DNA of 64,000 bases from positions 29,109 to 93,108 of the forward strand of contig JBFMBF010000001.1 of NCBI GenBank assembly GCA_040755315.1. The letters run 5' to 3'. This document shows positions 7,418 through 63,892 of the stretch, piece by piece. The notes under the pieces are model-generated. The model worked only from the letters and a program-made list of their open reading frames with translations, ran no database searches and was not told the DNA's origin. The translations under genes and the position numbers were made by a program. The DNA comes from Candidatus Hadarchaeota archaeon. GTDB lineage: Archaea > Hadarchaeota > Hadarchaeia > Hadarchaeales > Hadarchaeaceae. How positions within the stretch are numbered: position 1 is the first letter of the stretch; every line of letters starts with the position of its first letter.

Positions 7418-8125
7418 TTATTTCTTGATTTCTCTCAAGTACCCCTTCTTTTTAACCTGTCCCGTCTTGAACAGGCCGAGGTAACCCTGCAGGTACATCT
7501 TCACGGTTGATGCGTGTCCCTTCTGTTTGGTCCTTCTTATTGAGGTAACGGCGAGCATCTTTGGTTCAAATTTTTCTTTCCCGTACTTGTTCATTCTAAT
7601 GGAAAGATCGACGTCGTCCAGCATGTCCAAGTCTTCCCTGAAACCGCCGGCTTTGATGTAAGTTTCTCGGAGATAGGCGCAGCTTGCTCCAGAGAAGTGA
7701 TGTGAGCCAAAGAATGAGAACAGCCTTCGAATCAAGTCTGCGCCTAAAAAGAAGATTATTTTGTCCAAAAAGCTTCCACTTTCCGGGAGCAGCGGGCCGC
7801 CGACGCCGACTACTCCCTTTTTGAAAGCCTTGTCCACGACTTCTAGGTAGTTTGGCGGGACTGTGGTGTCCCCGTCGACAAAAACAACGATTTCTGAATT
7901 GACCTTCCGGACGGCGAGGTTCCTAGCCGCCGTTGCCCCCTTCCCCTCGTCGAAGATTATCTTGTTCGTGTACATTTTGGCCACCTCAACAGTGTTGTCC
8001 TTGCTGTGGCCGTCCACCACCACGAGCTCGTAATCCTTGAAAGTCTGATTTTTGATGCTCTCCAGACACCGACTTATGGTTTTTCCCTCGTTGAAGGTCG
8101 GGACTATCACCGAGATTCTCATCAT
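7418..8125 (-). CDS. Glycosyltransferase family 2 (dolichyl-phosphate sugar synthase-like)
   Basis: ISVIVPTFNEG N-terminus, DGHSKDNT, and a DGD motif; paralogous to the two downstream GT2 genes. Confidence 0.8.
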   Translation of the reverse strand: MMRISVIVPTFNEGKTISRCLESIKNQTFKDYELVVVDGHSKDNTVEVAKMYTNKIIFDEGKGATAARNLAVRKVNSEIVVFVDGDTTVPPNYLEVVDKAFKKGVVGVGGPLLPESGSFLDKIIFFLGADLIRRLFSFFGSHHFSGASCAYLRETYIKAGGFREDLDMLDDVDLSIRMNKYGKEKFEPKMLAVTSIRRTKQKGHASTVKMYLQGYLGLFKTGQVKKKGYLREIKK

Positions 8126-8159
8126 AAAGCCATTAATCTACCATCGTATAGATTTTGTG

Positions 8160-8861
8160 ATGATAAGTGTAATAATCCCAACACTGAATGAGGGCGCATA
8201 TCTAGAAAGGATACTGATCGCAATCAAGGACCAAACCCACCAAAATTTTGAGATAATAGTTTCCGACAGCCACTCGGACGACAACACCCAGGAGATTGCT
8301 AAGAAATACGGCGCAAAATTGGTGCAGTCCGAGAGGTTAGGGCCCGCCGTTGGGAGAAATCGTGGTGCTGAGATTGCAAAGGGGGAAATTCTAGTGTTTT
8401 TGGATGCGGACACGATTCCCTCAAAAAAGGTGCTAGAGACAATGGACAAAATACCGAACGAGAGAAAAGACGTCGTTGGAGGAACATGCGCCTTGTACCC
8501 ATCTAGAGGGAGCTTGTTGGATTGGCTGATTTTAGCTTTAGCCAATGCAGCCCTCAGGTTGATAATGCTTGGTGGCACCCCACAAGATACAGGATGCTGC
8601 AGTTTTTACAGGCGGGAAGTTTTCGAAAAAGTGGGAGGGGTAAGAGAGGATCTTAAGCTCAACGAAGCCCATGATTTGGCGATAAGGACAAAACCGTATG
8701 GAAAATTTATTTACATCAAGGTCCCGGCTTTCACCTCCATGCGCAGGTACAAGAAAGAGGGATACTTAAAAACAATCATGATCTACATCGATGCGGCCCT
8801 GTCCTACTTCCAAAGCAAACAGGTGCCCAAATCAAAGTTTGTGTTCGAGCCCGTAAGGTGA
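8160..8861 (+). CDS. Glycosyltransferase family 2
   Basis: MISVIIPTLNEG, SDSHSDDNT and a DAD motif; roughly 55% identical to the adjacent paralog at 8925..9626. Start taken at the internal ATG. Confidence 0.8.
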   Translation: MISVIIPTLNEGAYLERILIAIKDQTHQNFEIIVSDSHSDDNTQEIAKKYGAKLVQSERLGPAVGRNRGAEIAKGEILVFLDADTIPSKKVLETMDKIPNERKDVVGGTCALYPSRGSLLDWLILALANAALRLIMLGGTPQDTGCCSFYRREVFEKVGGVREDLKLNEAHDLAIRTKPYGKFIYIKVPAFTSMRRYKKEGYLKTIMIYIDAALSYFQSKQVPKSKFVFEPVR

Positions 8862-8924: not shown

Positions 8925-9626
8925 ATGATCAGCGTAATCACCCCTACCCTGAACGAAGGCAAATATCTGGAAAAGTTAATGAAAGCGCTGAAGGCGCAGG
9001 ACAACCAAGATTTTGAAGTAATTGTTTCCGACAGCCACTCGGACGACAACACCGCCGATATCGCGAAGAAGTACGGCGCGCGGGTCGTCCTTTCGGAAAG
9101 GTTGGGTCCAGGCGTCGGCAGAAACGTGGGTGCAAAAGCCGCCAAGGGAGAAATACTTCTTTTCATAGATGCCGACACAACACCTTCTCCACATCTCATC
9201 TCAAAGGTGAAAGCGATGTTGGAAAAGAGAAAAAGCGTGATTGGGGGTACTTGCCAGTTTTACCCATCGCAGGGGAACGTCCTAGACTGGTTCGTCTACG
9301 CTATTACAAACGCTGCGGCGCGGGCGATGATAGCCACCGGGACGCCGCAGGACCCGGGGTACTGCTTCTTTTACAGGCGGGAGGTTTTTGAGAAACTTGG
9401 AGGTCTCAGGACCGACCTGTCTTTCAATGAGACTCACGACCTGGCCATGCGGTCAAAGCAGTACGGAAAGTTCGCATTCCTCAAAGCGCCCGTTTTCACT
9501 TCGTTGAGGCGGTACAGAAAGCTAGGGTATCTAAAAACCATCAAGACTTACTTGGGTTCAACAATTTATTATTTAAGAACCGGCCAGACGCCTGCGGAAA
9601 AGTTCGAGTTCAAGCCGGTCAGGTGA
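8925..9626 (+). CDS. Glycosyltransferase family 2 (tandem paralog)
   Basis: MISVITPTLNEG, SDSHSDDNT and a DAD motif; same length (233 aa) as its upstream paralog. Confidence 0.8.
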   Translation: MISVITPTLNEGKYLEKLMKALKAQDNQDFEVIVSDSHSDDNTADIAKKYGARVVLSERLGPGVGRNVGAKAAKGEILLFIDADTTPSPHLISKVKAMLEKRKSVIGGTCQFYPSQGNVLDWFVYAITNAAARAMIATGTPQDPGYCFFYRREVFEKLGGLRTDLSFNETHDLAMRSKQYGKFAFLKAPVFTSLRRYRKLGYLKTIKTYLGSTIYYLRTGQTPAEKFEFKPVR

Positions 9627-17450: not shown

Positions 17451-18773
17451 GTGACGAAAATGATAAGAAGCAAAGCAGTAGTAATAGGACTTTTTGCGGC
17501 ATCGTTGCTGGCCGTTTTGTCGCTTGCTATTTTCAGTGGTGGAGTGTTGAAACAAGGAAGTCCAGGGGGAAAACCCACACCATCTGGGCCGGAATCTGGA
17601 ACAACTGGGACAAATATCCATTTTGGAGTGGTAGGCGCTTTACCCAGTTTTCCAAATGAGCTGAGAGAAGCGGGGGTTGGGATCGTGAGGGTGGGGATAG
17701 ATTGGAGCGTGACAGAACCGACAAATGATTCGTACAACTGGACACAGCTGGACACCATGGTCCAAAGTGCGGAAAACGCCGGCGTTGAACTTCTTGGTTA
17801 TTTTATTTACGCGCCCCAGTGGGCCAAGAGAAATCCAAGTTCTAACCAAGATATCTGTGAAATTAACAACATGAATGATTTCAGGCAATTTGCCAAAGAT
17901 GTCGCGAAAAGATATGATGGCAGCAATCCGGCGCTTGGAGAAATGAAATACATAGAAATTCTCAACGAAGTTACCTTCCCCAATTTCTATGAGCAAAATC
18001 CGATTGATACATATTCAGATTGGTTGATAAACGGTTATGGAGGAGTTAAGGAAGGAAACCCAAACGCGGTTGTTTTAATCGGGGCATTTTTCGACCCTCT
18101 CGATCATGCGGGGGGCGTCTTGGAAAATGAAAGAGTGTTCATAGACAAAATGTTGCAAGATTACAGCCAATATTACGATATAGTCAACTTCCACAGCTAC
18201 TCCAATTACGACAATGGGATTACAGAAACGGCGCAATACGTAAAAGAGCGCATGGCGCAGTTTGGAGTTAACAAACCGATGTGGATCACAGAAACCAATA
18301 CCATGTTTTCTTATGCAGACCCAGATTGGCAAAATAAGAATGCAAGGGATGTGGTAAAAATGTACGCCCGGGCCTTCGGAGAAAATGTTGAAAAAGTGTT
18401 TTGGTTTACTTTTGTGGGGCTTCCATTGCCCGCAGAGGACTCCGTAAACGGCATCGTGCCAAAAAATGTCACTTTAGGTTGGAATGTGAAGGGATCTGCA
18501 GTATACCACCCCAGACAAGCATATTACACTTATAAGTTAATGACTTCCAAATTGCGCGGATTTGTCTCTTCACAAAAAATTTCGGATAAACAGTACAAAT
18601 TCACTTTCACGGACAACAACCCAGTATATGTCTTGTGGGGCAGTGGGGGTTCATTACCATCGGAAATAACAGGGACAGTTAAAGTCACGGATTATCTGGG
18701 CAACGAACAGACCATAGGCGCTTCTAGTGTCGTCTTGAGTGACAATCCTGTTTTCATTACACAGCTCACGTGA
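17451..18773 (+). CDS. Secreted / membrane-anchored glycoside hydrolase (TIM-barrel clan GH-A, GH5/GH39-like)
   Basis: N-terminal TM/signal anchor and an ILNEV motif for the acid/base Glu. The WITETN motif would hold the nucleophile Glu. AT-rich (about 47% GC) compared with its neighbours. Confidence 0.55.
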   Translation: MTKMIRSKAVVIGLFAASLLAVLSLAIFSGGVLKQGSPGGKPTPSGPESGTTGTNIHFGVVGALPSFPNELREAGVGIVRVGIDWSVTEPTNDSYNWTQLDTMVQSAENAGVELLGYFIYAPQWAKRNPSSNQDICEINNMNDFRQFAKDVAKRYDGSNPALGEMKYIEILNEVTFPNFYEQNPIDTYSDWLINGYGGVKEGNPNAVVLIGAFFDPLDHAGGVLENERVFIDKMLQDYSQYYDIVNFHSYSNYDNGITETAQYVKERMAQFGVNKPMWITETNTMFSYADPDWQNKNARDVVKMYARAFGENVEKVFWFTFVGLPLPAEDSVNGIVPKNVTLGWNVKGSAVYHPRQAYYTYKLMTSKLRGFVSSQKISDKQYKFTFTDNNPVYVLWGSGGSLPSEITGTVKVTDYLGNEQTIGASSVVLSDNPVFITQLT

Positions 18774-18836
18774 TGGCGCCCGCCCGAAATTTTCAAATCA
18801 AGCCCTCCAAAGAAAGTTCCAGGTGAAACCGAAAAC

Positions 18837-19667
18837 CTACCCGAAAAAGAATCTGGGAAAAGCCGGTTCACACTCCACTCCCATCTCCCCGCAGACTTCT
18901 TCCACTTTCGACGACACCTGCCCCCACCACTTTGAACCCTTTCCCGTGAGGAACTGCATGCGCCCCGCGAGCCCCGGCCTCTCCTTCTGCAGCAGCGGGG
19001 TCATCCGCTCCAGAACGCCCGCCCTGAGGTTGAGCTTGTCGTAGATCAGGCGGCTCCCGGAACTCTTCGCCGCTTCGACGACTCCCCTGATGCTTTCCTC
19101 GGAGTCGGTTAGTCCCGGGATTATCGGCCCCAGGAAAATCCAGGTGTCGACCCCCCGCGACGAGAGTTCTTCGACCGCCCCGGCCCTGGCTTCCGGCGGC
19201 GACGCCCCCGGCTCGAGTTTTTTCGCGATTCCCCCGTCCATCGTCGTTATGGTGAACCCGACCTCGAAACCCTTTGGCTTGATTAAATCCTTATCCCGAA
19301 GCACCAGGGCCGACTTGGTCTGGATGCAGACGTCGAACCCGTGCGATGAGAGAATTTTGATGCATTTTCTGGTCAGCTCCAACTTCGCCTCTAGGGGCTG
19401 GTAGGGATCGGTCACCGTCGCTACGCCGACCGTCCCCTTTTCCCTCCTTCGGACCTCCTTAGCGAGGACTTCGGCGATGTTCTCCTTCGCCCGGACCACC
19501 TCCCCCCAGCGGTTGAGGAGCCCCCTGTCCCTGATCACCGAAGGCGAGTAGCAGTAGAGGCAGCCGTGCTCACAACCGATGTACGGGTTGAGCGAGTACC
19601 TCAGCCCGGGCAGCCTGCTCAAGGATAGAGCAGATTTGCAGGTTATTGTTGAGTACTCTGCGCTCAT
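18837..19667 (-). CDS. Radical SAM protein, SplB / DNA-repair-photolyase-like family (COG1533)
   Basis: CEHGCLYC is a CxxxCxxC radical SAM cluster motif; about 276 aa, typical for this family. Confidence 0.65.
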   Translation of the reverse strand: MSAEYSTITCKSALSLSRLPGLRYSLNPYIGCEHGCLYCYSPSVIRDRGLLNRWGEVVRAKENIAEVLAKEVRRREKGTVGVATVTDPYQPLEAKLELTRKCIKILSSHGFDVCIQTKSALVLRDKDLIKPKGFEVGFTITTMDGGIAKKLEPGASPPEARAGAVEELSSRGVDTWIFLGPIIPGLTDSEESIRGVVEAAKSSGSRLIYDKLNLRAGVLERMTPLLQKERPGLAGRMQFLTGKGSKWWGQVSSKVEEVCGEMGVECEPAFPRFFFG

Positions 19668-19897
19668 ATGGGCTTCACCAGCGGCCCCGATTGGTTGGGA
19701 AAATTATTGAATACTTTCGGCGCTTTTTGAAGCCGCGAAGAAAAAGCGGTTTTAACGCGGCCAAAAAGGCGATTTAGGAGTGTTTGCAGCGGGTGAAAGT
19801 TCTTAAATATTACTTTCGCCGACCTCTCTCCCCAAAAACCGTTTGAATGCTCTAAGTCAAATCGAGCTAGATGAGTACACGAGGAGACCTCTCCGGC

Positions 19898-21130
19898 ATG
19901 TTTTGGCAAGTTAGCGATTTGCAACCTATCCCTGATTTATTATACGAAAAGGTTCATTTATGGGATTTCCCCCCGTCCCGTGTCTTTGTAAAACTGAACG
20001 AGCCCTGTCGGCGCTGGCTTTTTGATGAACTCCATATGAGGTGTCAAACCAGTCATTTACTCTTCATCTTGAACACAAGGTGCAAGGCTTATGGCATTGG
20101 CCGAAGGTACAATAGAGGACACATTCGTACTTGGAAGAATGGAAGTAAAAGCGATAATGGCAAGATAAAGGATGCCCGTATCCCACTGTGGGTTCTAATC
20201 GAATTTTCAAAGTTGTTATCTGGTTCTGTCAACGATGGCGGCACCATCATGCGCCAAATTGAAAGAGAAGTTGAATACTGCGCCGCTAGCGGCAAGTCGA
20301 TACCGGTTAGGTTCAAATTTCCTCTTTTATTGACGCCGGAACTAGTTTCCGTTATTTTCCATTTATGCGGCGATGGGCATATTGGTACAGAAACTGATAC
20401 TTCCCATTATAGGCAAACAAACAAAACAGCATTCCAAAACTTTGCACGTAAATTACATAACTCATTTGGAGATTTTAGGGAAACGATAGTGGAAGATTCT
20501 AAAATCATTATACCAAGAATCATTACAGATTTTTATCAGCACTATTTTGGCATTAATAAGTGCAGGTGGAACACAGCACGCATACCCAAGCGCATTAAAG
20601 CGCTTGGGAGAGAGTTTCTTGTTGCTGGGTTGGCGGCATTTATTGTCGACGAGGGGCATGTCGGCGACCATCTGGAAATCTACTCATCTAACCCCAATCT
20701 GTTGGCAGACATAAGAGAAATTGCCCAGAAGCTCGGGCACGATTCAACAGATATCCACGCCAAGTACCGATATGGGGTTTTGAATGGATACAGATTTTTA
20801 ATCAAGAAACAAGGCGCGCTGATTTTTTACAAAGATGTCAAAGACCTATCCGAGCGATTTCCAATGTGCGGTTTAGCTCATAAAAGCGCCTGTTTAGAAC
20901 TGGGGGTTAAAATTAAAAAGCGCGGATGGCAGAAGATGCATAATGGTGTTACTAAACACAACATATTGTCATTACTACAAAGCCCGATGACTGTTCAGGA
21001 ATTATCAGAACGGATACTTATCCCAGCCGCATCTGTTCGAGAGCATTTGTCGCAACTCCGGGCGGCAGGGAAAGTCAGACTTTTTGGAAAACATGGCAGG
21101 AGGACATTATGGTTAAGTAAAGTCCAATAG
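19898..21130 (+). CDS. Free-standing double-motif LAGLIDADG endonuclease-like protein with a C-terminal winged-helix domain
   Basis: Two LAGLIDADG-type motifs (VIFHLCGDGHIG and LVAGLAAFIVDEGHVG) and a C-terminal wHTH (MTVQELSERIL...LSQLRAAGKV). AT-rich (about 43% GC). The start could also be the ATG at 19871. Confidence 0.5.
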   Translation: MFWQVSDLQPIPDLLYEKVHLWDFPPSRVFVKLNEPCRRWLFDELHMRCQTSHLLFILNTRCKAYGIGRRYNRGHIRTWKNGSKSDNGKIKDARIPLWVLIEFSKLLSGSVNDGGTIMRQIEREVEYCAASGKSIPVRFKFPLLLTPELVSVIFHLCGDGHIGTETDTSHYRQTNKTAFQNFARKLHNSFGDFRETIVEDSKIIIPRIITDFYQHYFGINKCRWNTARIPKRIKALGREFLVAGLAAFIVDEGHVGDHLEIYSSNPNLLADIREIAQKLGHDSTDIHAKYRYGVLNGYRFLIKKQGALIFYKDVKDLSERFPMCGLAHKSACLELGVKIKKRGWQKMHNGVTKHNILSLLQSPMTVQELSERILIPAASVREHLSQLRAAGKVRLFGKHGRRTLWLSKVQ

Positions 21131-47834: not shown

Positions 47835-48763
47835 TCTATCAACATCTTGAGGCCCTTCTCGAACGGAACCTTGGCCTCGAACCCGAGGAGCTTCCTCGCC
47901 TTTGCTGTGTCCGCCTGGTGCCTGTAGACGTAGCCGGTGATGGGGTTCGGCGCGTACTTGGGCTTGATGTTTTTGCCCAAGTAGCTGCTCAAAAGGGCGG
48001 TGGCGTCGTTGACTGATATCGTCCTGCCGGTCCCGACGTTGAAGACCTCTCCCGCCACTCCTTTTCTGGTCGCGGCCAGGAAGTTTGCTTGGGCGACATC
48101 TCCCACGTAGACGAAGTCCCTCGTCTGCTTACCGTCGCCGTAGATCAATGGTCTCTCCCCCTTCTTCATCCCCCAGACGAACTGCGTGATAAGGTTGGCG
48201 TACTTCCCCTTTGGCCCCTCCCCCGGCCCGTAGACGCTGAAGTACCTCAGCCCGACGGTTTCGAGGCCGCGCTCGGCCGTGAATGTTTTTGCGAGGTGTT
48301 CCGCCGCGAACTTGGTCATGGAATAAAAGTTCCCGCATTTCTGGATGAAAACGTCCTCTTTGAATGGAGTTGGCAGGGAGCCGTAGATGGTCGAGGTGGA
48401 GGCGTGCACCACCCTCTTCACGCCGTTTTCATGGGCCCAGCGGAGGAGGTTGGCGAACCCCATCACGTTGACAGATATTCCGAGGCCGGGGTCGGGGACG
48501 AACATCTGGGATGAAGAGACGGCGGCCTGGTGGAAGACGTAGTCCACCCCGCGGGTCGCCTTTTTCACAATTTTTTCGTCCCGGACGTCGCCCTTGATCA
48601 GTTCTATTTCTTTGGCGACGTCGTCAAGGTTGTCTGATTTCCCGAGGAAGAAGTTGTCGAGGACGCGGACTTCCCACCCTTTTTTGAGGGCGCCCTTCAC
48701 GATGTTGGACCCTATGAAGCCGGCCCCGCCCGTGACCAGAACTTTCAGACAATCACCTTTCAA
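47825..48763 (-). CDS. NAD-dependent sugar epimerase (UDP-glucose/UDP-GlcNAc 4-epimerase, WbpP-like)
   Basis: VTGGAGFIGSN and a YSMTK catalytic YxxxK; about 312 aa. Confidence 0.8.
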   Translation of the reverse strand: MKGDCLKVLVTGGAGFIGSNIVKGALKKGWEVRVLDNFFLGKSDNLDDVAKEIELIKGDVRDEKIVKKATRGVDYVFHQAAVSSSQMFVPDPGLGISVNVMGFANLLRWAHENGVKRVVHASTSTIYGSLPTPFKEDVFIQKCGNFYSMTKFAAEHLAKTFTAERGLETVGLRYFSVYGPGEGPKGKYANLITQFVWGMKKGERPLIYGDGKQTRDFVYVGDVAQANFLAATRKGVAGEVFNVGTGRTISVNDATALLSSYLGKNIKPKYAPNPITGYVYRHQADTAKARKLLGFEAKVPFEKGLKMLIECY

Positions 48764-48915
48764 AGATACGACTCCCGTTATTAAAGACTAGATTATCAAA
48801 TACTCCGTCAGTCCTCCGCTTCCAGTGGGTGATTTTTCCGGCTCGGCTCTTGACCCGGCCAAATGAGAAAACTGGCAGCATAACTTTTCAAGGTGAGAGG
48901 CTGAAGTGCAGAATC

Positions 48916-49719
48916 TTGAGACCATTAGCTGTTGCTTTAGTCCTTTTGTTTGTATCAAATTATCTCGTTCCGCTTTCCTCGGCTCTTGAAGAAAATTCAA
49001 GTGCAACGTTTTCATTTACCATCCCGCAAGATGAAAACGCTCAGCCTGAAAATTTCGCGCAGGGTTCGGACGCAACTTCTCCGGACAACGGCGAGAACTC
49101 GGACCACCCGGAACCGGAGAATCTGGTCTGGTACTACGCCGAGAACCTGTGGGCCCCGGCAGACGTGCACAGCCCGTTCGCAGACAGGGTTTTCTTCATA
49201 AACGCGCCCTATGACCCGACTGAGGGCCTTCCCGAGAATATGCTGGGATTGCCAGATGGTGCATACTGCGACCTCAACGGCGGCCAAACCACCGTGGGCT
49301 TCCCGAACGAGTCCAGGAACGCTTTTCTAGATTACGGAGTGCCCATCCCTCCCGGCACTGACCTGATCATCTTCGACCGCGGGTACTTCGACTTCCCGGC
49401 GCTCGTGACTTTCGGTTTCGGTGTCCCGTTGGACGCGGACAACGATGGGATGGCGGACAATCCGTCCGGCGTTGCCAGCTACATTGGTGGTGCGGTTTCT
49501 CCACTGCAGTACGGCTCAGTTGAACCCCTGAACCTGGCGTTCTTTGATATAGGTGACTACGGTCAATTGAATCCAATACCAAATGACCTGTTCGTATCTG
49601 TCGACGATGCGGGCGACTACGACATAGACTCGTTCGAGATAGGGTTTTCAGTTTTAGATACAGCGCCGCCCACTTCCATGGTTCTGCCGTTCGACGGCAA
49701 GGCCTTCGTGGGGATCTAG
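48916..49719 (+). CDS. Secreted protein; stand-alone diverged duplicate of the N-terminal domain of the giant protein at 50587..58242
   Basis: About 90% aa identity to residues 1 to about 265 of the giant protein, including the signal peptide (MRPLAVALVLLFVS...SSA). It diverges after ...MVLPFDG and stops seven codons later. About 30 nt of upstream leader are also duplicated. Probable TTG start. Confidence 0.55.
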   Translation: MRPLAVALVLLFVSNYLVPLSSALEENSSATFSFTIPQDENAQPENFAQGSDATSPDNGENSDHPEPENLVWYYAENLWAPADVHSPFADRVFFINAPYDPTEGLPENMLGLPDGAYCDLNGGQTTVGFPNESRNAFLDYGVPIPPGTDLIIFDRGYFDFPALVTFGFGVPLDADNDGMADNPSGVASYIGGAVSPLQYGSVEPLNLAFFDIGDYGQLNPIPNDLFVSVDDAGDYDIDSFEIGFSVLDTAPPTSMVLPFDGKAFVGI

Positions 49720-49852
49720 CACACTTTGGCCACGTTCAAATCCGGTAGATGATTGGACAGATCATATGCTGAAAAGTATCCGACACAGGGGGTTTCGTTG
49801 AGTCGGCTGGTACAAATCTCAGATTCGTAGCAAAAACAGCGGCGGGCGAAAT

Positions 49853-50485
49853 TTATCCCACCCGATTAACACCGGAGATTGTTAGTCCGGAAGGCGGGGT
49901 GGAAAATCCATCTCCATAACTGCTTGCTGTTAGTTCTAACACATCTCCTCTGTTCCACAGCATTGCGGCGGGTTTATGACCGGTTCCGTAACTGTTGGTT
50001 TCTTCGTTGTCATTGTCCACCCACAAATAAAGATACGCGTTTTCCCCATGCTCAAGTTTTCCAACTACAGTAACTGGTACGTGCAAACTCCAGCGAACAA
50101 ATGCGTTTTGGGCCGCAGAAGCCGCCCAGTAGCCATTCTCCTCCACATACCCTCGTGCGTAATTCTCCTGCCCCTTCACATCAGCGACAAATGTGCCCCA
50201 TCCGCGCGTGGTGTTGCTTATTTTTACGATTAGACCATGGTCTTTGTCTCCAACATATCTAAGAGATTTTACAGTTGTATAAAATCGTATTACCATATTT
50301 TCATTGCTAAATATTTCGCTAGAAGTTGTGTCACTGTCAAATACCTCTGCATTGAATTCCCCCACAACAGGATCTACTGTAGGAATAAATGGCGATTGTG
50401 TGACAATCAAAATCACAGTTGTCGTGATAGCAATAACTGTAACAATGCTTACAATTTTCCATTTTTTAGAACGAATGGCTTTCAT
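49853..50485 (-). CDS. Hypothetical membrane-anchored protein (N-terminal TM plus an extracytoplasmic domain of about 180 aa)
   Basis: AT-rich (about 40% GC). Start at the internal MKAIRSKKWKIVSIV; the longer ORF to 50686 is the antisense of the duplicated leader. No family recognised. Confidence 0.4.
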   Translation of the reverse strand: MKAIRSKKWKIVSIVTVIAITTTVILIVTQSPFIPTVDPVVGEFNAEVFDSDTTSSEIFSNENMVIRFYTTVKSLRYVGDKDHGLIVKISNTTRGWGTFVADVKGQENYARGYVEENGYWAASAAQNAFVRWSLHVPVTVVGKLEHGENAYLYLWVDNDNEETNSYGTGHKPAAMLWNRGDVLELTASSYGDGFSTPPSGLTISGVNRVG

Positions 50486-50586
50486 CTGTTGAACACCTTT
50501 TGAGCAAACCTCAGTTAATAATTCACGCCAAGTCTTAAATAATAAGTGGCCGAAGTTTCCAAGGTGAGAGGCTGAAATGCGGAATC

Positions 50587-53500
50587 TTGAGGCCGTTAGC
50601 TGTAGCTCTGGTCCTTTTGTTCGTGTCAACTTATCTCGCCCCGCTTTCCTCGGCTCTTGAAGAAAATTCAAGTGCAACGTTCTCATTTACCATCCCGCAA
50701 GATGAAAACACTCAGGCCGAAAACTCCTCGCAGGGTCCGGACGCAACCTCTCCGGACAACGGCGAGAACTTGGACAACTCGGAACCGGAGAACCTCGTCT
50801 GGTACTACGCCGAAAACCTGTGGGCCCCGGCAGAGGTGCACAGCCCGTTCGCCAACAGGGTTTTCTTCATAAACGCGCCCTATGACCCGACCGAAGGCCT
50901 GCCGGAGAACATGTTGGGGTTGCCGGATGGAGTATACTGCGACCTCAACGGCGGCCAGGCGACCGTGGGATTCCCAAACGAGGCCAGGAACGCTTTTCTA
51001 GACTACGGGGTGCCCATCCCTCCCGGCACTGACCTGATCATCTTTGACCGTGGAAGCCTTGACCTGCCGAACCTCGTGACTTTTGGTTTCGGTGCCCCTG
51101 TGGACGCGGACAACGACGGGATGGCGGATAATCCATCTGGCGTTGCCAGCTATATTGGAGGAGCAGTTTCTCCGCTGCCGTATGGCTCCATCGAACTCCT
51201 GAACCTGGCGTTTTTTGACATCGGCGATTACGGTCAATTGAACCCAATACCAAACAACTTGTTTGTGTCTGTAGACGATGCAGGCGACTACGACGTGGAC
51301 TCGTTTGAGATAGGGTTTTCGGTTCTAGATACAGCGCCGCCCACTTCCATGGTTCTGCCGTTCGATGGCGAGGAATACTGGAAGGAGCTTGAGCCGGGAC
51401 AGAGTTTTTCCGTCAGCGCGGTGGCGGCCGACAACGTTGGAGTGAGAAATGTCCAGCTCTGGTATAGGTATTCGCTCGACAACTGGACGGACAACGTGGC
51501 ATGGAAGAAGCGCGGCTGGCAGCTGTATGGGGCGGACGTGAGCGGCGCCGATGGATGGAGCTGGAACTTCACACCCGAGAAGTACGGGTACTACGAGTTC
51601 GTCAGCGTGGCGACTGATTCGAGTGGGAACCGGGAGGACAAGGAAAACGTGTTTAGAGATAACTTGGCGGAGGCGAGATGCAGAGTGGCGAAGGATCTGG
51701 TGAGAGTGGCGGTGATCTTCGCGGAACCAAACGATGTTGATAATTTGGGCCAGCGGAATTGGGTTGATCCACAAACTGGACAAACAGAAAACTTACCAAC
51801 TCGTGAATTTTTCCGAAGGACTTTTGGAATACTGAAGAGTTATTGCGATGAGGTTTCATCTGGGGCGTTGGCAGTTAGGTTAGAAGACGAAGATATACAC
51901 GATGCAAATGGTATTTGGTATACGCTTGGCATGCCGCAAAACAACTATCTTTATTTTTACAGACCAGCGGGCAGCTGGACATATTCAAATCAATTTCTCA
52001 TAGATGCGATAAACGCGGCGGATGTTGATATCGTGTATGGAGACTATAAAGCAGTTATTGTCGTTGGAGCACTTGGTACTTTTCCAGGGCTCTTTGCTTA
52101 CTATGGCGGGGCAGATTATAAACTGGAAGAAGTCAAGACTAACACAGATGAAATAGCGTACAACCCAATATTTTTTGACGAGTTAGATGTAGATCCAAAT
52201 GACCTTACGCTAGCTCACGAAGTTGGGCATGCGCTTGGAAAAATACTTGCTAATGAAAAGCTTCCAGAGCTTTACAATACAACTGGATCATGGGGAGATG
52301 TAGATGGCTGGGATCCAATGGGGAATGAGCGTTGGCCGGTCCACTATTCTTCTTGGAGTAAGGAGCGCCTGAAGTGGCTCAACTATCAAAAAGGCGACCT
52401 TACTTCACCTCTAGGCGGCGTTCTCGCTGGCCATATAGATGCACTACCAACTCTTGCTTATGGTGACAACGTATATTTCCTCAAGGTCGATCGGCAGGAC
52501 CAGTGGTGGTGGGGCTGGGGAAACGAGGTCTGGTACGCGTTGGAGTTTAGAACAAACGATCCAAGTGTTAGTAAGGGAGACACAGATGTGCGGGGCACCG
52601 GTTTGGTCATTTACCAAGTAGACTATAGTTGGGAACTGTGGGGGCTAAAATCATATACACGCGTAAATGTTGTAGAAAACGATCAAGACCCGGCCAGCCC
52701 AACTTGGCTTTTACCTTGGGAAATTTACCACTCGGGAATAGGTAATGGAGCGATATTTGCTGCGGGAGAAATTTTTTACCACACGGACGAGGCGTTTCCT
52801 TGGGGCAAAGTTCCCAGCATGAATTTTGTGGTGCAGTATCCATACCCGAAAAGCAGCGCCACAGCCGTGATGTTCCAGATTCCATACGAACTCCGCGGAG
52901 CACTGGCGTCGGCTTCTGTGCAACCGTCGCCGGACTTGGATTTGCATGCTTACGCTGCAGATGGCAGACATGTGGGGGTTAATTATGAAACCGGCGAATA
53001 TGAGATTGAAATAACTGGGGCAACTTCGTCAGGCGACCTATTCCAGGGGAGCGAATGGATTTCAGTTCCTTCAGGCATCGATGCTTTTTTTGTCGTTAGC
53101 AGCCGCGATGTGAAGGAGGCTATACAAGCAGGCGTTGAGCTTGAGAACGAAGCCGGCCTCTATGCCATCAGAGTGGCCCATACAGATGAAAACAGAAATC
53201 TGTATTTCTCACATGCAATTGGACGAGAAATAATGCCTGGTGAAGAAATTGCCCACACGACCACCGCAAGAGTTAAAATAGAAAATATTGCCACCAAGCC
53301 TTTCTCACCGAACCGCGATGGCATAAAAGACACGGCCACTGTTTCATATTTACTTATCGACAACTTCTGGCAAAAGGCCAAGGTTTTAATTGACATTTAC
53401 AATGACGACAACAAGCTGGTTAAAAGGTTGTTTTCGGATTGGGAGAACGCTGGCCGCGATGGTCTGCTTTATTTGTATACATGGGACGGCCGAGATGAAG

Positions 53501-56500
53501 ATGGAGCCATTGCCCCAGACGGAGTTTACACTGTTCGAGTAGACGCGGCGGATGCAATGGGAAACCGTGACGAGGCAAGTGCACAAGTGATTGTTGACAC
53601 CACTTATCCGGTGTCGCTCGTCGAGTCCCCACGGCTCTGGCAAAATACAGAAAACTTTACGGTAACCGCGACAACATCGCATGATTTGAGCGGGATTGAA
53701 AACGTGGAGTTATGGTACAGGTACAGCCCTGACAATCTCTCGTGGTCTGACTGGCAACTTTACGGCTTCAACAACGAGGAACCATATTCCTGGAATTTCA
53801 TGGCAGAAAACGACGGATTTTATGACTTTTACAGCAGGGCAACCGATTGGGCAGGCAATGCCGAGCCACGCCCGAGGAAAGGGAATTGGTCGATGTATGG
53901 GGCCAATCCAGGTCAGACGTTTTACTCCAACTCGTCCGTGCCCCTGCGTCCCGCTTTAGCTTGGAGCAGAAATTTCGAGTCTGAGATATGTGCCCCCGTG
54001 ATTGCCGACAACATGGTTTACGTCGTCAAAGAGGACGGCATAGCTTCCCTCCAAGCTTCGACCGGCAGCACGGTATGGGAGCACTCAGGGTTGGGGTACG
54101 GCGGACCGGAAGTAACATACGGCCCGGCGGTAGTCGGCGGAAACGCGTACGCGTTCTTCGGAGTTGATGGCGAAGGATATCTGTACAGCCTGGACGCAAA
54201 CACGGGGGAAATTCTATGGCGCGCGGCCCCGCCTTACGGCGCCGACTACACGATGAAGGTGCTGGTGGCGGACGGCGTCGTCTACCGGGTTTTCGTGGAC
54301 GACTACGGCAACCCCGCGCAGGTCGTCGCCCTCAACGCCCAGAATGGCAGCTACATTTGGGATACCGGCGACATGGGTGGCAACTTGTACGCCGTGGAGG
54401 ACGGACGCGTTTATCTTAGCCGCGGGGCAAGCGGCGCTGACTGGGTGGATGCCGCCACTGGGGAGTTCGGGGGGCATTACGTGTACCTCGTCGACGGGGA
54501 GATTGTTTCATGCCCATACGACGGCTCAACCCGTCTCGATTTTCTTTATGAAGAAGAGATCGAGGTCGAATACGGCAGGCGTTACGAGTTCTATTTCTGG
54601 TGCCCGAAACATGGCCATGTTGTTGTCCGTGAAGGGCAGGAGATGGAAAAAACGTTTGCCGGGCAGCGCTTCCCTGTCGAGCCGAGGGCCCTGGCGGTGG
54701 CCGATGGCATCGCATACATCTACGGAGAGGACGGAAGCCTGCGTGCCGTTGACACCGCAACGATGCAGACACGCTGGAGCGCCGAGCTTCTCCAGACACC
54801 CAGGCTGCCGGGGTACACCCGCGTCCGGCACGATGGGGCGCTGGCCGTGGGGGACGGCAGGGCTTACCTCGACTTGCGGGAGGTGTATTCTGCATACGAA
54901 GGGGGGCGCTGGATAACCACTTCGTACCACACCATTTACACGGTGGATTCTTCCACCGGAGAACTCCTCTGGGGTTATGATTTCGGGTGGTGGCCGCTGG
55001 ACGGAGGCTGGAGTTTGCACCACCCATACTTGTCTTTAGCCGCTGTGGACGGGAAACTCGTAGTCGGCTCGCCAGACGGGTTGTTCATCCTGAACGGCGG
55101 CAATGACTCAATTGTCTGGAAGAACGAAGATGTGGGCTTTGGAAAGGTCGCTCTGGCGGGAGGAGGGATTTACTACGCGGCCGGAAATAGCCTGTTTTAT
55201 TTCGAGCCGTCAAAGGTCCAAGTCGGCGTGGACACCGCTCCGCCAGATTCGCTCGTTACCCCGATTGAACCCCACTGGCGAACGCTTGGGCCGCTTGAAG
55301 TTAGCGCCACAGCGTCCGACGCGCTGAGTGGAGCCGAAAACGTAGAGCTCTGGTACCGGCACTCGACCGACAACGTGACATGGAGCGGCTGGAAGCCGTA
55401 CGGAAACATGTCGGCCGGAGAAGCGCTGCACAAGGTGAAACTCAGGATAGAGTTCCCGGAAAAAGTCAAGTGGGTGAACGGCGGGGTCATGGTCGGCAAT
55501 CACGTCTTCCAGCAGACTTACGAGGAGAACTCAGTCTTCGAGCTGGAGACCCCCGCGGCGTTCAGAAGAGGCGACACCGTTCAGTGGTACATAGATATGT
55601 GTGTGGAGGGGGCAGGCGGAGAGGTGGAATACTGGACGGGTTACCAAACCCTCGCAATCGAGGACAAGGATGTTTTAATCAATATGGTCATTCATGATTT
55701 GACGGACGAGCGGGCTTTCTCGTTCATGATTTCCGAATACCTGACGCCCCAGACGTTCCAAATCACGTTCACCCCTCCTGCGGGAGACGGCTTGTATGAT
55801 TTTTACTCCATCGCCATTGACCGGGCCGGAAACCGCGAGCAACCCCCCGAAACGGCCGATACAAGAGCTGGCGTCGATACGACTCCTCCCGAATCCCACG
55901 CTAACCCAATAACACCATACTGGCGCAACGCAAACGCTGTGCCGTTTGAGGTGACCGCAACGGCGTTCGATGGGTTAAGTGGCGTAAAGCGGGTGGAGCT
56001 GTGGTACCGATATTCTCCCGACAACCGGAGTTGGGGCAACTGGGCGATGTTCGGCACAGATAATGGGTCGCCCTGGCAATGGCAATTTGATGCGCCCGAA
56101 GGCGACGGATTTTACGAGTTCTGCAGCGTTGCCACAGATGAGCTTGGGAATGCTGAGTTCCTTGTGCCAGTGTTCGTGGACGAATTCGCCGGCACTTTGG
56201 ATTCAACGACTTGGGCGGTCGGGAAGGTGAAAGTCAAGAACGACAGCGCGGCAGTGTCGGGCGGGCACCTGCAACTGGCCTCAAGGGCGGCCACGGCGGG
56301 CACCTATGGCGCGATTTACGCGGTTTCTAATTCTCCATTCGACTTCAGCCGGGGCTTGATATTTGACGTTTCAATGTCTGTGCCAACGGACAACGCGCCA
56401 GCCGACTTCAGGAGCGAGTTTTACCTGGCGCCAGACTACACGACAACGGCAAACCCGCACGACCAGCCGAACTGGATCCGGGTCTCCGCGAGCGTTGACC

Positions 56501-58947: not shown

Positions 58948-59126
58948 AGGCAGGCACCCCACCATCGCGGTTGACAAATGGTGCCCCAATTTTCCGGAAG
59001 CGCCAATGTGTGCAGCGGTATTTTTACTGGTTTTCAATTTTTGCATTGATTCAACTGAACTTATAATTGTTTATATGTTTGGTTAACTGGGCAAAAAATG
59101 TTTTTCAGCACAACACACACAATTTT

Positions 59127-59151
59127 GAGCCGGAATCCCGTCCGGTCCGCT
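59127..59151. repeat. Direct repeat copy 1 (TGAGCCGGAATCCCGTCCGGTCCGC)
   Basis: 23/25 identical to a second copy at 59957..59981. The repeats flank an AT-rich two-gene cassette. Each contains the short dyad GCCGG...CCGG(C/T). Confidence 0.5.
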
Positions 59152-59229
59152 TTTGCACGGGTTATCCACTGGAAAACGAACGCCAACCTGCAGAAAGCTT
59201 AATACTCTTTTCAGCTTTTGTTAATATTG

Positions 59230-59724
59230 ATGTACTACGAAAAAGTTTTGCGAGAGTTGAACGCAAGGGGGATCCTGTATATCGTGGCCGGAGGAATAGC
59301 CGTGAATCTACACGGCGTGCCTCGGGCAACGTCCGATTTGGATATACTTTTGTACTTGGAAAGTTCCAACGTTGGTAAACTTGTGGACATCATGAAAAAA
59401 CTTGGGTACAAGCCACGGGCGCCGGTCAGTTTCACCGATATAACTCTCGAAAACCTAGAAAAGTGGGTCAAAGAAAAACACATGAAGGCGTTCAGTTTTA
59501 TAAATCCCAAAGTACCGTACGAAGAAGTGGACATCATCTTAGACCATCCATTGGACTTCGAACGAGTTTACAAAAGAATAGAGTTCATAACAGCCAAAAA
59601 CGTGTCCATCCCGCTCATTTCACTGGATGATTTAATCAAACTGAAAAAACACTCTAAACGTTTACAGGATTTGTCCGATGTAGAGGCTTTAAGAAAGGTG
59701 AAAAAAATGAAAAAGGTGGCTTGA
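59230..59724 (+). CDS. Nucleotidyltransferase-fold protein (minimal NTase, AbiEii/DUF1814-like), hypothetical
   Basis: ILYIVAGGIAVNLHGVPRATSDLDILL resembles the GG...R.T.DLD motif of minimal nucleotidyltransferases. AT-rich. Confidence 0.4.
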   Translation: MYYEKVLRELNARGILYIVAGGIAVNLHGVPRATSDLDILLYLESSNVGKLVDIMKKLGYKPRAPVSFTDITLENLEKWVKEKHMKAFSFINPKVPYEEVDIILDHPLDFERVYKRIEFITAKNVSIPLISLDDLIKLKKHSKRLQDLSDVEALRKVKKMKKVA

Positions 59725-59725
59725 C

Positions 59726-59899
59726 ATGGAAAGAAAAGGTTTCAGGTACAACACTACCAAAGAAACAATAACAAATTACGCTGGGTTATCAGCCAGACAG
59801 AAACTGGAATGGTTGGAAGAAGCCAACAGATTTTTTTACAACTCCATGTCTCAAAGTAAAAGAAAAATAATGGAAAAATTCAGGTCTGGAAAGATTTGA
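59726..59899 (+). CDS. Small hypothetical protein (57 aa) immediately downstream of the NTase gene
   Basis: MERKGFRYNTTKETITNYAGLSARQKLEWLEEANRFFYNSMSQSKRKIMEKFRSGKI. Adjacent to the NTase stop; below the ORF-track size cutoff. No family recognised. Confidence 0.2.
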   Translation: MERKGFRYNTTKETITNYAGLSARQKLEWLEEANRFFYNSMSQSKRKIMEKFRSGKI

Positions 59900-59956
59900 A
59901 CGGGTTGATAAAAAAGAAAAAATTGGATCCGCCTTCGGCACAACCCGCCCATTCAT

Positions 59957-61260: not shown

Positions 61261-61863
61261 TCAGGATTTTGTTATCAGCTCACGCAGTCTCGCAGCGAGG
61301 AGGTGGGAAAGCACTGAGTGGAAGCCCTCCACCTGCGGCGTTGAGTTGGCCGGCACCACCACGCAGACATCCGCCACCTTCTTCAGCATGCCGCCGTCGA
61401 AGCCCGAGAAGCCGATGACCTTCCCGCCGTTGTCCTTGACGAACCTGACGGCCTTCAGGAGGTTCTGTGACCACGGCCCGGCCTTGTCGGCGCCAGCCCC
61501 CCCATGGACGCTGAATGCGACGAAGATGTCCCCCCGGTTCATCAGGTTCCTCAGCTGTTCAACGTACACATTTTCCCATCCGAGGTCGTTTGTGATTGCC
61601 GTGGTGAGAGGGATGTTTTCATTGAGGGAAATGGTCCTGAACCTCTTCTTGCCGTGGACCGAGGTGAACTTTGACAGGTCGGCCGCGAGGTGCATTGCCG
61701 TTGCAGCCGACCCCCCGTTGCCGGCCGTGAATACCTGTTTCCCCTCTTTCCAGGCCTTGAACAAGAGCCCGACAGCCCTAGAAATGTTTTCCTGGGAAAT
61801 GCTGCCCGCTATCCCAGCGACACCATGCAGATAATTGTCCACGAACGCCTTGTTTTGCACCAT
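61261..61863 (-). CDS. gmhA: Sedoheptulose-7-phosphate isomerase (SIS domain; GmhA)
   Basis: SIS-domain pattern VFTAGNGGSAATAMHLAADL and HGGAG, matching phosphoheptose isomerase; about 200 aa. Confidence 0.8.
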   Translation of the reverse strand: MVQNKAFVDNYLHGVAGIAGSISQENISRAVGLLFKAWKEGKQVFTAGNGGSAATAMHLAADLSKFTSVHGKKRFRTISLNENIPLTTAITNDLGWENVYVEQLRNLMNRGDIFVAFSVHGGAGADKAGPWSQNLLKAVRFVKDNGGKVIGFSGFDGGMLKKVADVCVVVPANSTPQVEGFHSVLSHLLAARLRELITKS

Positions 61864-61948
61864 TCACCCAAGCTCTGTCTACTGGACAATAAAAATCTTC
61901 TTGGGCAAGGCTAAAATAAGCGCCATAGACTAGTCTTTTGGTGTTCAA

Positions 61949-62896
61949 ATGCGGGAAGCTTTGTTCCAGATGTACAGAAAAATATTCAGTAGAAGCATCA
62001 TATTGCTTTCGAAGCTGGGAATCAAGCCCACAGGCCATGGCATTTGCGGATTTTATCCAGCAAAATTGTTTGACAGCTTCGTTCGCTCCAGCGTTTCTCC
62101 AGAGTCCGTAGAAGTTCTGGGGCACAAGATGTTTCTTGATCCTAAGGATTCCCTTTTCCTGTCGATTAACAAGGTTTACGAGCCTTTAACAACTGAGCTT
62201 GTAAAACAAGAGGTAAAAAAAGGGGACGTGGTTCTAGATGTCGGTGCCCACATAGGGTATTTCACATTGATTTTTGCCAGGCTTGTTGGAAGCACTGGGA
62301 AGGTATTTGCGTTTGAACCTGAGCCAAACAACTTTGTGTTGCTTGAAAAAAATGTGCGGGCGAACGGCTACGGCAACGTGGCGCTGGTCCAAAAGGCGGT
62401 GTCAAACAAAACCGAGAAAATCAAATTGTATTTGTCCGGTGATTTCACGGTGGATCACGCCATTTACAACTCGGGTGGCAAAAAGTTTGTTAGTGTAGAC
62501 TCGACGCGGCCGGATGATTTTATAAAGAATCACGGCTGGCGGGTTGATTTTGTAAAAATGGACATCCAAGGTGCGGAGGGGCTGGCGATAGAGGGGATGA
62601 AATCCATCATCCAAGAAAACAAAAATATAAAGATGGTTATCGAGGTCTGGCCAGTTGGGCATAAAAAGGTCGGCACAAATCCCAGAGATTTTTTAGAGTT
62701 TCTTTTGAAAGAGGGATTCAAACTTTACGAAATCAACGAAGGTCAGAAAAAAATAGAGCCGGTCAGAATAGACGAATTCCTAAAAGTGTACACTCCTGAA
62801 AAGGAAAATTTCACAAATGTATTCTGCACCAGGGAAGCGTGGTCTCCCGGGGCGTTACTCAAAAAGGCCGATGTTCTCGGACATCCAGCCGTCTAA
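61949..62896 (+). CDS. FkbM-family SAM-dependent methyltransferase
   Basis: VLDVGAHIGYFTL and FAFEPEPNNF are typical FkbM-domain motifs. AT-rich. Confidence 0.7.
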   Translation: MREALFQMYRKIFSRSIILLSKLGIKPTGHGICGFYPAKLFDSFVRSSVSPESVEVLGHKMFLDPKDSLFLSINKVYEPLTTELVKQEVKKGDVVLDVGAHIGYFTLIFARLVGSTGKVFAFEPEPNNFVLLEKNVRANGYGNVALVQKAVSNKTEKIKLYLSGDFTVDHAIYNSGGKKFVSVDSTRPDDFIKNHGWRVDFVKMDIQGAEGLAIEGMKSIIQENKNIKMVIEVWPVGHKKVGTNPRDFLEFLLKEGFKLYEINEGQKKIEPVRIDEFLKVYTPEKENFTNVFCTREAWSPGALLKKADVLGHPAV

Positions 62897-63892
62897 TTTC
62901 GCCACGCCCTCTTCAGGGCTTACGGCAGGCTTCCAGCCGAGAATTTTCTGAGCCTTTGTCGTGTCTGAGATGTAAACTTTCTGGTCAGCCGGCCGCCAAT
63001 CTGCGAACGAAATTTTTGGTTTCTGCCCAGTAACGCGTTCCAGGAGGTCGACCAGCTCCAGAAGCGACAGGGTGTTTTTCACCCCGCCCCCCATGTTGAA
63101 AACTTCATGCTTCGGTCCGCTGCGCAAAAATTTGTCAAAAGCCCTCACCAAATCCTCGACGTAAAGCACGTCCCTGACCTGTTTCCCGTCCCCGTAGATT
63201 TTTATCTTTTTTTTCAGCTTCGTCGCCAGCGTGAGCCAGGCAATCCAGCCGTGCTCCTCCACGCCGAACTGTCGCGCGCCGTAGATACAGCTCATCCGGA
63301 ACACCCCGGTTTTCAGCCCGTAGGTGTGGGAATAATCCTGCATGTAAATGTCCCCCACAAGCTTCGAGCAGCCATATGGCGTGTGCCAGGTCCTGTCGAC
63401 CGGGAAGTCCTCCGGTATGCCGTTTTTGTACTTCTTGTCTGCGAAGATGTACCTTCTCCTACCTTCGGCCACAGGGACCTTGTTCACGTTGTCCCCGTAA
63501 ACCTTGTTGGTCGAGCAGTACACCACGGAAGAATCGTTCTGGCGCGCCGCTTCCAGCACGTTGAAAGTGCCCAGAGCGTTGACATCGAAATCCAGCTGAG
63601 GGTCGTTGATCGAAGTTCTGACGGCAACTTGGGCGGCGGTGTGGATTATCGCGTTCGAACCCTTCGCCGCAGTTTTCAGGTCTTCGGGCTTTCTCACGTC
63701 GCCTTTGATCAGCTTCACATTTTTGAGCTTTTTCAGGTAGTCCCAGTTGAACGTTGGCGCGCCGACTTCCTCGCCGAGCATCTTCCACCTTGAAAGGTTG
63801 TCCAATATCACTACTTCATCAGATTTTTTTGAGTAGTATTCCGCGGCGTGCGAGCCGATAAATCCCGCCCCACCAGTGATCAGCACCTTCAT
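62855..63892 (-). CDS. NAD-dependent sugar epimerase (CDP-paratose 2-epimerase-like extended SDR)
   Basis: MKVLITGGAGFIGSH and a YGCSK catalytic YxxxK. Start taken at the internal MKVL. Confidence 0.75.
   Translation of the reverse strand: MKVLITGGAGFIGSHAAEYYSKKSDEVVILDNLSRWKMLGEEVGAPTFNWDYLKKLKNVKLIKGDVRKPEDLKTAAKGSNAIIHTAAQVAVRTSINDPQLDFDVNALGTFNVLEAARQNDSSVVYCSTNKVYGDNVNKVPVAEGRRRYIFADKKYKNGIPEDFPVDRTWHTPYGCSKLVGDIYMQDYSHTYGLKTGVFRMSCIYGARQFGVEEHGWIAWLTLATKLKKKIKIYGDGKQVRDVLYVEDLVRAFDKFLRSGPKHEVFNMGGGVKNTLSLLELVDLLERVTGQKPKISFADWRPADQKVYISDTTKAQKILGWKPAVSPEEGVAKLDGWMSENIGLFE

Follow-up and report, generated by a model that had tools for sequence, protein, structure and literature searches.

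A probable short secreted paralogue, retained after partial duplication of a giant surface-protease gene in a Hadarchaeota genome

The genome of a Candidatus Hadarchaeota archaeon (GenBank assembly GCA_040755315.1) carries, in the 64,000 nucleotides (nt) of contig JBFMBF010000001.1 analysed here (positions 29,109 to 93,108 of the forward strand, hereafter the window), a gene for a giant surface protein and, upstream of it, a short gene that repeats the giant gene's 5' end. The two are separated by a small gene on the opposite strand, termed gene X. The question raised by this locus is what the short gene, copy 1, represents: a working gene, a remnant of recombination, a donor of sequence for the giant gene (whose corresponding part is termed copy 2) or an error of assembly. 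Copy 1 is the ordinary outcome of a partial gene duplication, a well-known kind of event, and the anatomy, direction and age of this duplication, the purifying selection on the copies and the format of the domain family involved are all shown by the analysis. On balance, and as judged from sequence, copy 1 is probably a retained and probably expressed paralogue, stand-alone and secreted, of the N-terminal domain (N-domain) of the giant surface protease.

A diverged copy of the 5' end of a giant gene

The giant protein comprises, in order, a signal peptide, a linker, the N-domain, Ig-like modules, an M6-like metalloprotease, a PQQ-type beta-propeller and LamG/3-keto-disaccharide-hydrolase-like domains, and it lacks a C-terminal anchor. 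BLASTN aligns its 5' end with copy 1 over 821 nt, ungapped and at a constant offset of 1671 nt, with 101 mismatches (87.7% identity), the non-coding leader included (Table 1). The coding share of the repeat amounts to 786 nt (262 codons), also 87.7% identical, and 235 of the 262 encoded residues are the same. A sequence-only reading of the window had reported this repeat (48885..49695 versus 50556..51366) at roughly 88-90% nucleotide and 90% amino acid identity, with about 30 nt of shared leader and a TTG start, and with homology ending at ...MVLPFDG, after which copy 1 terminates within seven codons. These features are confirmed: the leaders are clearly homologous over 34 nt before both TTG codons, and in copy 1 the homology is followed by six codons (KAFVGI) and a stop. 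No other long repeats of the copy-1/copy-2 region are found within the window.

As the sequence derives from a metagenome bin, a duplication generated by assembly was considered. However, the 101 differences fall mostly on third codon positions, and a second deposited assembly (GCA_040752175.1) contains two short contigs, L001 (JBFMFF010000531.1) and L002 (JBFMFF010001125.1), which are 100% identical to 48453-49510 and 49530-51588, respectively. Since the latter joins the 3' end of copy 1, gene X and the first kilobase of the giant gene (copy 2), an assembly artefact is practically excluded, and the argument from divergence already made in the sequence-only reading holds, at 12% and with identical contigs from a second assembly beside it. 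Both contigs were deposited in a 'Candidatus Zixiibacteriota' bin despite their full identity to a Hadarchaeota contig, which is probably due to binning contamination.

The public annotation treats copy 1 as a normal protein with the identical TTG start. The boundary of its signal peptide falls between ...SSA and LEEN, and the following 60-residue linker holds 13 aspartate or glutamate residues but no lysine or arginine. An AlphaFold model of copy 1 gives a confident beta-sandwich at residues 84-247 (predicted local distance difference test, pLDDT, of 86-97 by block), with the linker and the tail (residues 248-267) disordered. The opening of this tail, DTAPPTSMVLPFDG, aligns to the start of an Ig-like module (VDT[AT]PP.S...P..W ... 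ELWYRYS) which recurs four more times in the giant protein, and copy 1 stops 14 residues into the first such module of its 2551-residue parent type. Because copy 1 carries this stub, and a primordial one-domain gene would not, the short form is derived from a giant-type gene and not the reverse.

The same direction follows from a third copy of the module, P0001 (MEW6221694.1, AB1476_00005), since this outgroup shares glutamate at residue 262 with the giant gene, where copy 1 has a private lysine. P0001, the first gene on the same 100,902-nt contig, falls outside the window and is read from the opposite strand. It lies upstream of copy 1 by 85 locus-tag steps (81 annotated proteins), a distance estimated at tens of kilobases. 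It is 82-83% identical to both window copies over the signal peptide, linker and N-domain, and it is truncated by the end of the contig at ...PFDGE, no more than one codon away from the end of homology between copies 1 and 2. The assembly graph may fork at this point, for example with a second giant body or a strain variant beyond.

Table 1. Coordinates of the features discussed, in window positions unless assigned to L006, a contig of Hadarchaeota MAG026 (aa, amino acids; ORF, open reading frame; TM, transmembrane).
Feature	Position	Strand	Basis or remark
Copy-1 upstream module	48864..48915	+	octamer TGAGAAAA 48864-48871, 20-nt spacer, Shine-Dalgarno-like GGTGAGAGG 48892-48900, leader to TTG
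Repeat copy 1, clear ungapped homology	48882..49702	+	BLASTN versus 50553-51373
Copy-1 gene, 267 aa, AB1476_00430 / MEW6221775.1, hypothetical protein	48916..49719	+	ORF, model, deposited annotation
Copy-1 signal peptide, aa 1-23	48916-48984	+	
Copy-1 acidic disordered linker, aa 24-83	48985-49164	+	
Copy-1 beta-sandwich domain, aa 84-247	49165-49656	+	
Copy-1 DADNDG loop	49432-49449	+	
Copy-1 Ig-module stub, aa 248-261	49657-49698	+	
Small hairpin GCCGT-TCG-ACGGC on the 3' end of homology	49686..49698		read from sequence
Copy-1 private tail, KAFVGI + TAG	49699-49719	+	
Convergent spacer, copy-1 stop to gene X stop, 133 nt	49720..49852		
Gene X, 210 aa, AB1476_00435	49853..50485	-	ORF; N-terminal TM helix + all-beta domain
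Divergent X/giant-gene intergenic region	50486..50586		TATA-like TTAAATAA 50535-50542, GGTGAGAGG 50563-50571, leader
Repeat copy 2, leader + first 262 codons of giant gene	50553..51373	+	BLASTN
Giant gene, 2551 aa, AB1476_00440 / MEW6221777.1	50587..58242	+	ORF, domain scans
Upstream relic, from start codon, 45 homologous codons	L006 9699-9920		
Downstream relic, TATA-like box, leader, 33 homologous codons, stop	L006 10586-10752		
Second X paralogue at contig end	L006 10850-11001	-	

The TTG codons at 48916 and 50587 are the starts of the two genes, that of copy 2 being the only in-frame start available there, and the homologous leader before both includes GGTGAGAGG. A three-way alignment with a downstream relic of the same 5' module in a related genome (L006b; contig L006 of Hadarchaeota MAG026, GCA_040757795.1) extends the common ancestry to the TATA-box position at -52 to -45, where the octamer reads TTAAATAA in copy 2 and L006b and TGAGAAAA in copy 1. 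The spacing between octamer and GGTGAGAGG is exactly 20 nt in all three. By sequence, the three upstream regions descend from one region, a putative promoter. A 27-codon ORF in the +1 frame overlaps these starts (48906-48989, 50577-50660 and L006 10629-10712), its GTG or ATG lying 5 nt past GGTGAGAGG, an ideal Shine-Dalgarno spacing, and the real TTG 15 nt away. This ORF ends at the same TGA in the three copies; the upstream relic, L006a, reaches that TGA too but lacks GGTGAGAGG. As a real coding frame it was rejected: the +1 peptide is not conserved, and the differences are mostly synonymous in the frame of the signal peptide (7 of the 9 codon differences between the two window copies). If relevant at all, it may bear only on the control of translation.

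Selection, exchange and the age of copy 1

The comparison of nonsynonymous and synonymous divergence (dN/dS, omega) that had been proposed in the sequence-only reading reveals purifying selection in the history of the copies. By the Nei-Gojobori method, 67 synonymous and 30 nonsynonymous differences separate copy 1 from copy 2 (dS 0.49, dN 0.052, omega 0.106), distributed 22/10/65 over the three codon positions. The deficit of nonsynonymous changes relative to neutrality is highly significant (binomial p 5e-21) and omega stays between 0.05 and 0.30 in each 150-nt segment. The 262 aligned codons hold neither an indel nor a stop, and copy 1 retains its TTG start.

Pairwise omega alone cannot tell which of the copies is constrained, and P0001 was used as outgroup in a three-way comparison of the amino acid sequences. 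Private replacements number 13 in copy 1, 11 in copy 2 and 29 in the outgroup. With 13 against 11 such changes, copy 1 has not evolved faster than copy 2, and Tajima's relative-rate test detects no acceleration (p 0.68). Neutral drift over the whole copy-1 branch (about 0.25 substitutions per site) would give of the order of a hundred replacements. The lack of any disabling change caps a neutral phase of copy 1 at about 0.02-0.03 substitutions per site, approximately the last tenth of the branch, under our own rough rates of indels (about 0.1 per substitution) and of nonsense changes (about 4.5% of substitutions). Copy 1 further retains all invariant and near-invariant columns of its domain family, including D173, D177 and G178.

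According to a second explanation, already offered in the sequence-only reading, copy 1 would serve as a homology reservoir or donor cassette, converting the 5' end of the giant gene and thereby varying its N-domain. Three diverged copies of the module do reside in one genome, and the signal-peptide region is more similar within the genomes (88.5% and 92.9%) than between them (81-82%), as would result from concerted evolution or from independent duplication; the private substitutions also show a weak tendency to cluster in the protein sequence (runs test p 0.07). However, the search for mosaic conversion tracts between the copies detected none: the maximum chi-squared test is not significant over all sites (p 0.30) or over third positions (p 0.12), identical stretches extend over at most 41 nt (p 0.35) and the differences are evenly spread. 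The first 300 nt show slightly less synonymous divergence, which is not significant by these tests. With dS near 0.5, any sequence exchange between the copies must lie far in the past, and an omega of about 0.1 is the reverse of what diversifying selection would leave. Neither a start codon nor a signal peptide is present in classical silent cassettes, whereas copy 1 has a leader, a TTG and an intact signal peptide, and as the copies are direct repeats crossing-over would delete gene X. A role as donor cassette is therefore unsupported and very improbable.

Partial copies of one end of a large gene for a surface or secreted protein, adjoining the full gene and sharing a conserved stretch with it, are familiar from polymorphic-toxin loci (cdiA-CT/cdiI of contact-dependent inhibition, CDI, and Rhs) and from antigenic-variation cassettes (pilS, vls and the Mycoplasma vsa genes). 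Those systems consist of displaced 3' ends or promoterless internal cassettes, with mosaic exchange and diversifying selection. In the window, by contrast, the duplicate is of the 5' end and brings a start and a signal peptide of its own, with purifying selection and no sign of mosaic exchange. Copy 1 resembles truncated paralogues and gene relics in being a 5' fragment which ends arbitrarily within a domain and runs on for a few out-of-context codons. The L006 relics are of this kind. Unlike gene relics, copy 1 is free of decay (no frameshift, stop or loss of start) and bears the selection signature of a working gene.

A relic may nevertheless be young. In a third explanation, which we regard as unlikely but as the main rival, two full giant paralogues once flanked gene X, and a deletion or cassette replacement left only the promoter-proximal 0.85 kb of the upstream one; copy 1 would be a recently stranded 5' relic, now functionless and bound to decay, and its clean dN/dS would reflect an earlier life within a full-length gene. 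Gene X indeed lies between two large M6-protease/Ig-like genes at three loci of uncultured archaea (L003, L004 and L005), and in L006 truncated relics of the module, with 45 and 33 homologous codons, lie on either side of an X homologue, and a second X is convergent with the second relic. That copy 1 ends within an Ig-like module, leaving a disordered stub, also fits this course of events, as does the degenerate equivalent of its TATA box. Against it, the 801 nt of copy 1 show no indel, nonsense or start-codon change, which limits drift as estimated above, the relative-rate test gives no excess of changes in copy 1, and nothing in the 133-nt spacer downstream points to a gene body once present there: neither the giant gene nor L006 contains a sequence homologous to it, and tRNA and Rfam comparisons yield no match. 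A tRNA-like string in this region, GTTCAAATCC, was entertained as an integration site and dropped, as it has no such match. Since the sequence is clean and the branch lengths are symmetric, a long-dead relic is impossible. The remnant of recombination or insertion suggested in the sequence-only reading is thus tenable only if the event was recent, or if it gave rise to a copy that was kept later; copy 1 may well have begun as a shed 5' by-product.

Some of the observations weigh against a retained, working copy 1. Pairwise dN/dS averages over the whole history of the copies, and a recent past as a full-length paralogue would give the same numbers. The equivalent of the TATA box in copy 1, TGAGAAAA, is degenerate and falls short of the TTAAATAA present in copy 2 and L006b, and the protein has no membrane anchor or sorting signal. 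A stand-alone orthologue in another genome was not found in scans of proteins, of Genome Taxonomy Database (GTDB) genomes, of metagenomes and for the leader pattern, and a related genome has dead relics of the same 5' module at the same kind of locus. The stand-alone secreted paralogue is still the best supported of the options that the sequence-only reading had offered, given the intact ORF and signal peptide, the dN/dS, the conserved residues and the stand-alone homologues considered next.

The N-domain family and a possible role of copy 1

An exhaustive HMMER scan of 1.84 billion representative proteins retrieved only 27 relatives of the N-domain, 13 of them at E<=1e-10, matching query residues of about 85-258. 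Most are proteins of about 210-250 residues with an N-terminal hydrophobic leader followed by the domain, while a few of the matches sit within very large adhesin-like proteins or after a trypsin domain. Judged by these sequences, a signal peptide with a single domain is the usual format of the family, and it is hence plausible that copy 1 functions on its own. The relatives are taken as bacterial because the only member with an organism name, P0004 (Symploca sp. SIO1B1), is cyanobacterial. No N-domain was found in GTDB species genomes or in metagenome contigs. The leader DNA pattern recurs among genomes only in the L006 contig; its 60 matches in metagenomes are all due to chance, with no homology past the pattern of about 21 nt.

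The N-domain has no relative in Pfam, NCBIfam or the Protein Data Bank (PDB) by sequence (family scans and a PDB sequence profile). A Foldseek comparison to the PDB yields a best E of 0.026 and none below 0.001, with CBM35, CBM6, CBM32 and the Eph ligand-binding domain among the top jelly-roll matches. A loop of the form D-x-[DN]-x-D-G is nearly invariant in the family (D173, D177 and G178 in copy 1, copy 2 and P0001, which also keep the other near-invariant columns), and, going by what is generally known of this motif, it may bind calcium.

Three relatives, P0004, P0005 and P0008, illustrate the likeness to copy 1: a homologous domain of about 165 residues (phmmer E 2.5e-21 to 1e-10, 33-40% identity) with the DxDxDG loop, arranged as a leader followed by one domain, at a similar overall length. 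A PEP-CTERM tail scored in both relatives that were scanned for it, P0005 and P0008, and the other full-length relatives align to that tail. The archaeal copies differ in that they lack PEP-CTERM or any other C-terminal sorting signal (no PEP-CTERM match in copy 1 or the giant protein in Pfam and NCBIfam scans), in an extra acidic linker of 60 residues, and in that two of the three are, or probably are, the N-termini of far larger proteins. PEP-CTERM proteins as a class are tied, in passages of two papers (PMC9850573, PMC9012009), to exopolysaccharide-dependent aggregation, which serves here as an analogy only.

For the preferred reading, the following course is proposed. A partial 5' duplication of a giant-type gene covered the stretch from the core-promoter position through the N-domain to 14 residues of the Ig-like module, and the frame, which closes after six private codons, would have been kept as a working gene. 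Copy 1 may be transcribed from its own, possibly weaker, promoter, and its product may leave the cell through the Sec pathway, with cleavage following SSA at residue 23. This would leave a free, acidic protein of about 26 kDa with an isoelectric point of about 4, consisting of a flexible linker and one domain. This protein may recognise the same partner as the N-domain of the giant protease/adhesin, and may work together with the giant protein or as its competitor. Because genes for nucleotide-sugar metabolism and glycosyltransferases surround the locus, a glycan of the cell surface or matrix is the probable partner.

The locus does not overturn current understanding, and its value lies chiefly in annotation and in the evolution of archaeal surface proteins. 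It offers a clean, datable case of one domain freed from a giant multidomain surface protein through partial duplication, in a phylum without cultured members and with an almost unstudied cell surface; a literature search on Hadarchaeota surface proteins retrieved nothing. It further defines a rare, unannotated family of extracellular domains common to one archaeal lineage and to PEP-CTERM-type proteins (one of them cyanobacterial), and marks out the small membrane-anchored X as a partner conserved alongside the M6-protease surface proteins of archaea.

Gene X, related loci and the surroundings

Gene X probably starts at the ATG at 50485, in agreement with the deposited AB1476_00435. Its GC content is 43.6% and its GC content at third codon positions (GC3) 0.38 (range 0.30-0.50), and local 400-nt windows go down to 37.8%. 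It belongs to no Pfam or NCBIfam family, an AlphaFold model built from 3 sequences is too poor for use (pLDDT 47), and only three clusters of homologues occur among 5.8 billion proteins. All of these homologues adjoin M6-protease/Ig-like surface-protein genes or relics of the same 5' module. In L003-L005 the X homologue is tightly packed in one operon with the two large genes on either side, and because X is thus placed between homologues of the giant gene, it is a conserved partner rather than an unrelated insert. The earlier description of an unrelated, AT-rich, membrane-anchored gene is accordingly upheld for its opposite strand, transmembrane helix and low GC, but not for 'unrelated'. No convincing direct or inverted repeats that would mark a mobile element flank gene X.

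The M6 (InhA-like) surface proteins of uncultured archaea (P0032-P0037; L003-L005) are 32-46% identical to the protease region of the giant protein, and up to 65% locally. They share with it the HExxH motif, the Ig-like modules with ELWYRYS and the neighbouring gene X, but they lack the N-domain (L003 has DUF2341 in its place) and a duplicated 5' end. Two genes of L003 (6290-10004), of 1045 and 166 residues, look like a single gene interrupted by a frameshift or stop. The 1045-residue gene really begins at a GTG further upstream, which gives it back a signal peptide, and the linker following this peptide is distantly like that of copy 1.

The two L006 fragments of the 5' module are, by their sequence, clearly dead, and this type of locus sheds the 5' ends of large genes. 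The second X of L006 opposes the downstream relic, the same convergent layout as that of copy 1 and gene X in the window, and the orientation of the first X relative to the relics is the reverse of that in the window. No synteny of the genes flanking in L006 with those of the window was found. It is conceivable, but improbable, that the segment 'promoter - leader - signal peptide (- N-domain)' serves these Hadarchaeota repeatedly as an anchor for recombination, at which giant-gene bodies and gene X are swapped, each event stranding the previous 5' end upstream. Hints of this are the three 5' fragments, and no other gene fragments, that adjoin X genes in two genomes, the contig end that cuts P0001 so near the limit of homology, and the sharp GC3 mosaic of the giant gene. 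If true, the anchor would mirror the 3' orphan arrays of CDI/Rhs loci, and copy 1 would be the youngest, or a co-opted, orphan.

In the giant gene GC3 is 0.60-0.81 over the N-terminal 400 and C-terminal 1550 residues, the usual level of the genome, and 0.34-0.52 over the protease module (51787-53586, residues 401-1000). Given this contrast the giant gene is a mosaic in composition, with the change occurring 400 nt further downstream than the boundary of the duplication. The sharp drop over the protease module, which is the part most conserved relative to L003-L005, suggests that recombination brought in or replaced this module. Low GC3 is common to gene X and the protease module. A zinc-metalloprotease motif, HEVGH, is located at 52216-52230; the match to the M6 (InhA-like) model falls below its cut-off, and homologues of the giant protein are named 'M6 family metalloprotease-like'. 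Its public name, 'PQQ-binding-like beta-propeller repeat protein', covers only a minor part of the protein.

The neighbourhood is a surface-glycan island, with genes for a UDP-glucose dehydrogenase, SDR and GFO/IDH/MocA oxidoreductases, two NAD-dependent epimerases/dehydratases, a sugar nucleotidyltransferase and an FkbM methyltransferase, and with two family-2 glycosyltransferases further upstream. The latter (8052-8861 and 8925-9626) are diverged tandem paralogues, 72% identical over 255 nt. Further islands of low GC3 (0.44-0.52, the genes of the genome lying mostly at 0.63-0.80) occur at 17451-21130, 59000-59900 and 61800-62900, and hold a GH5-like hydrolase, a helix-turn-helix protein, a DUF6036 nucleotidyltransferase and an FkbM methyltransferase.

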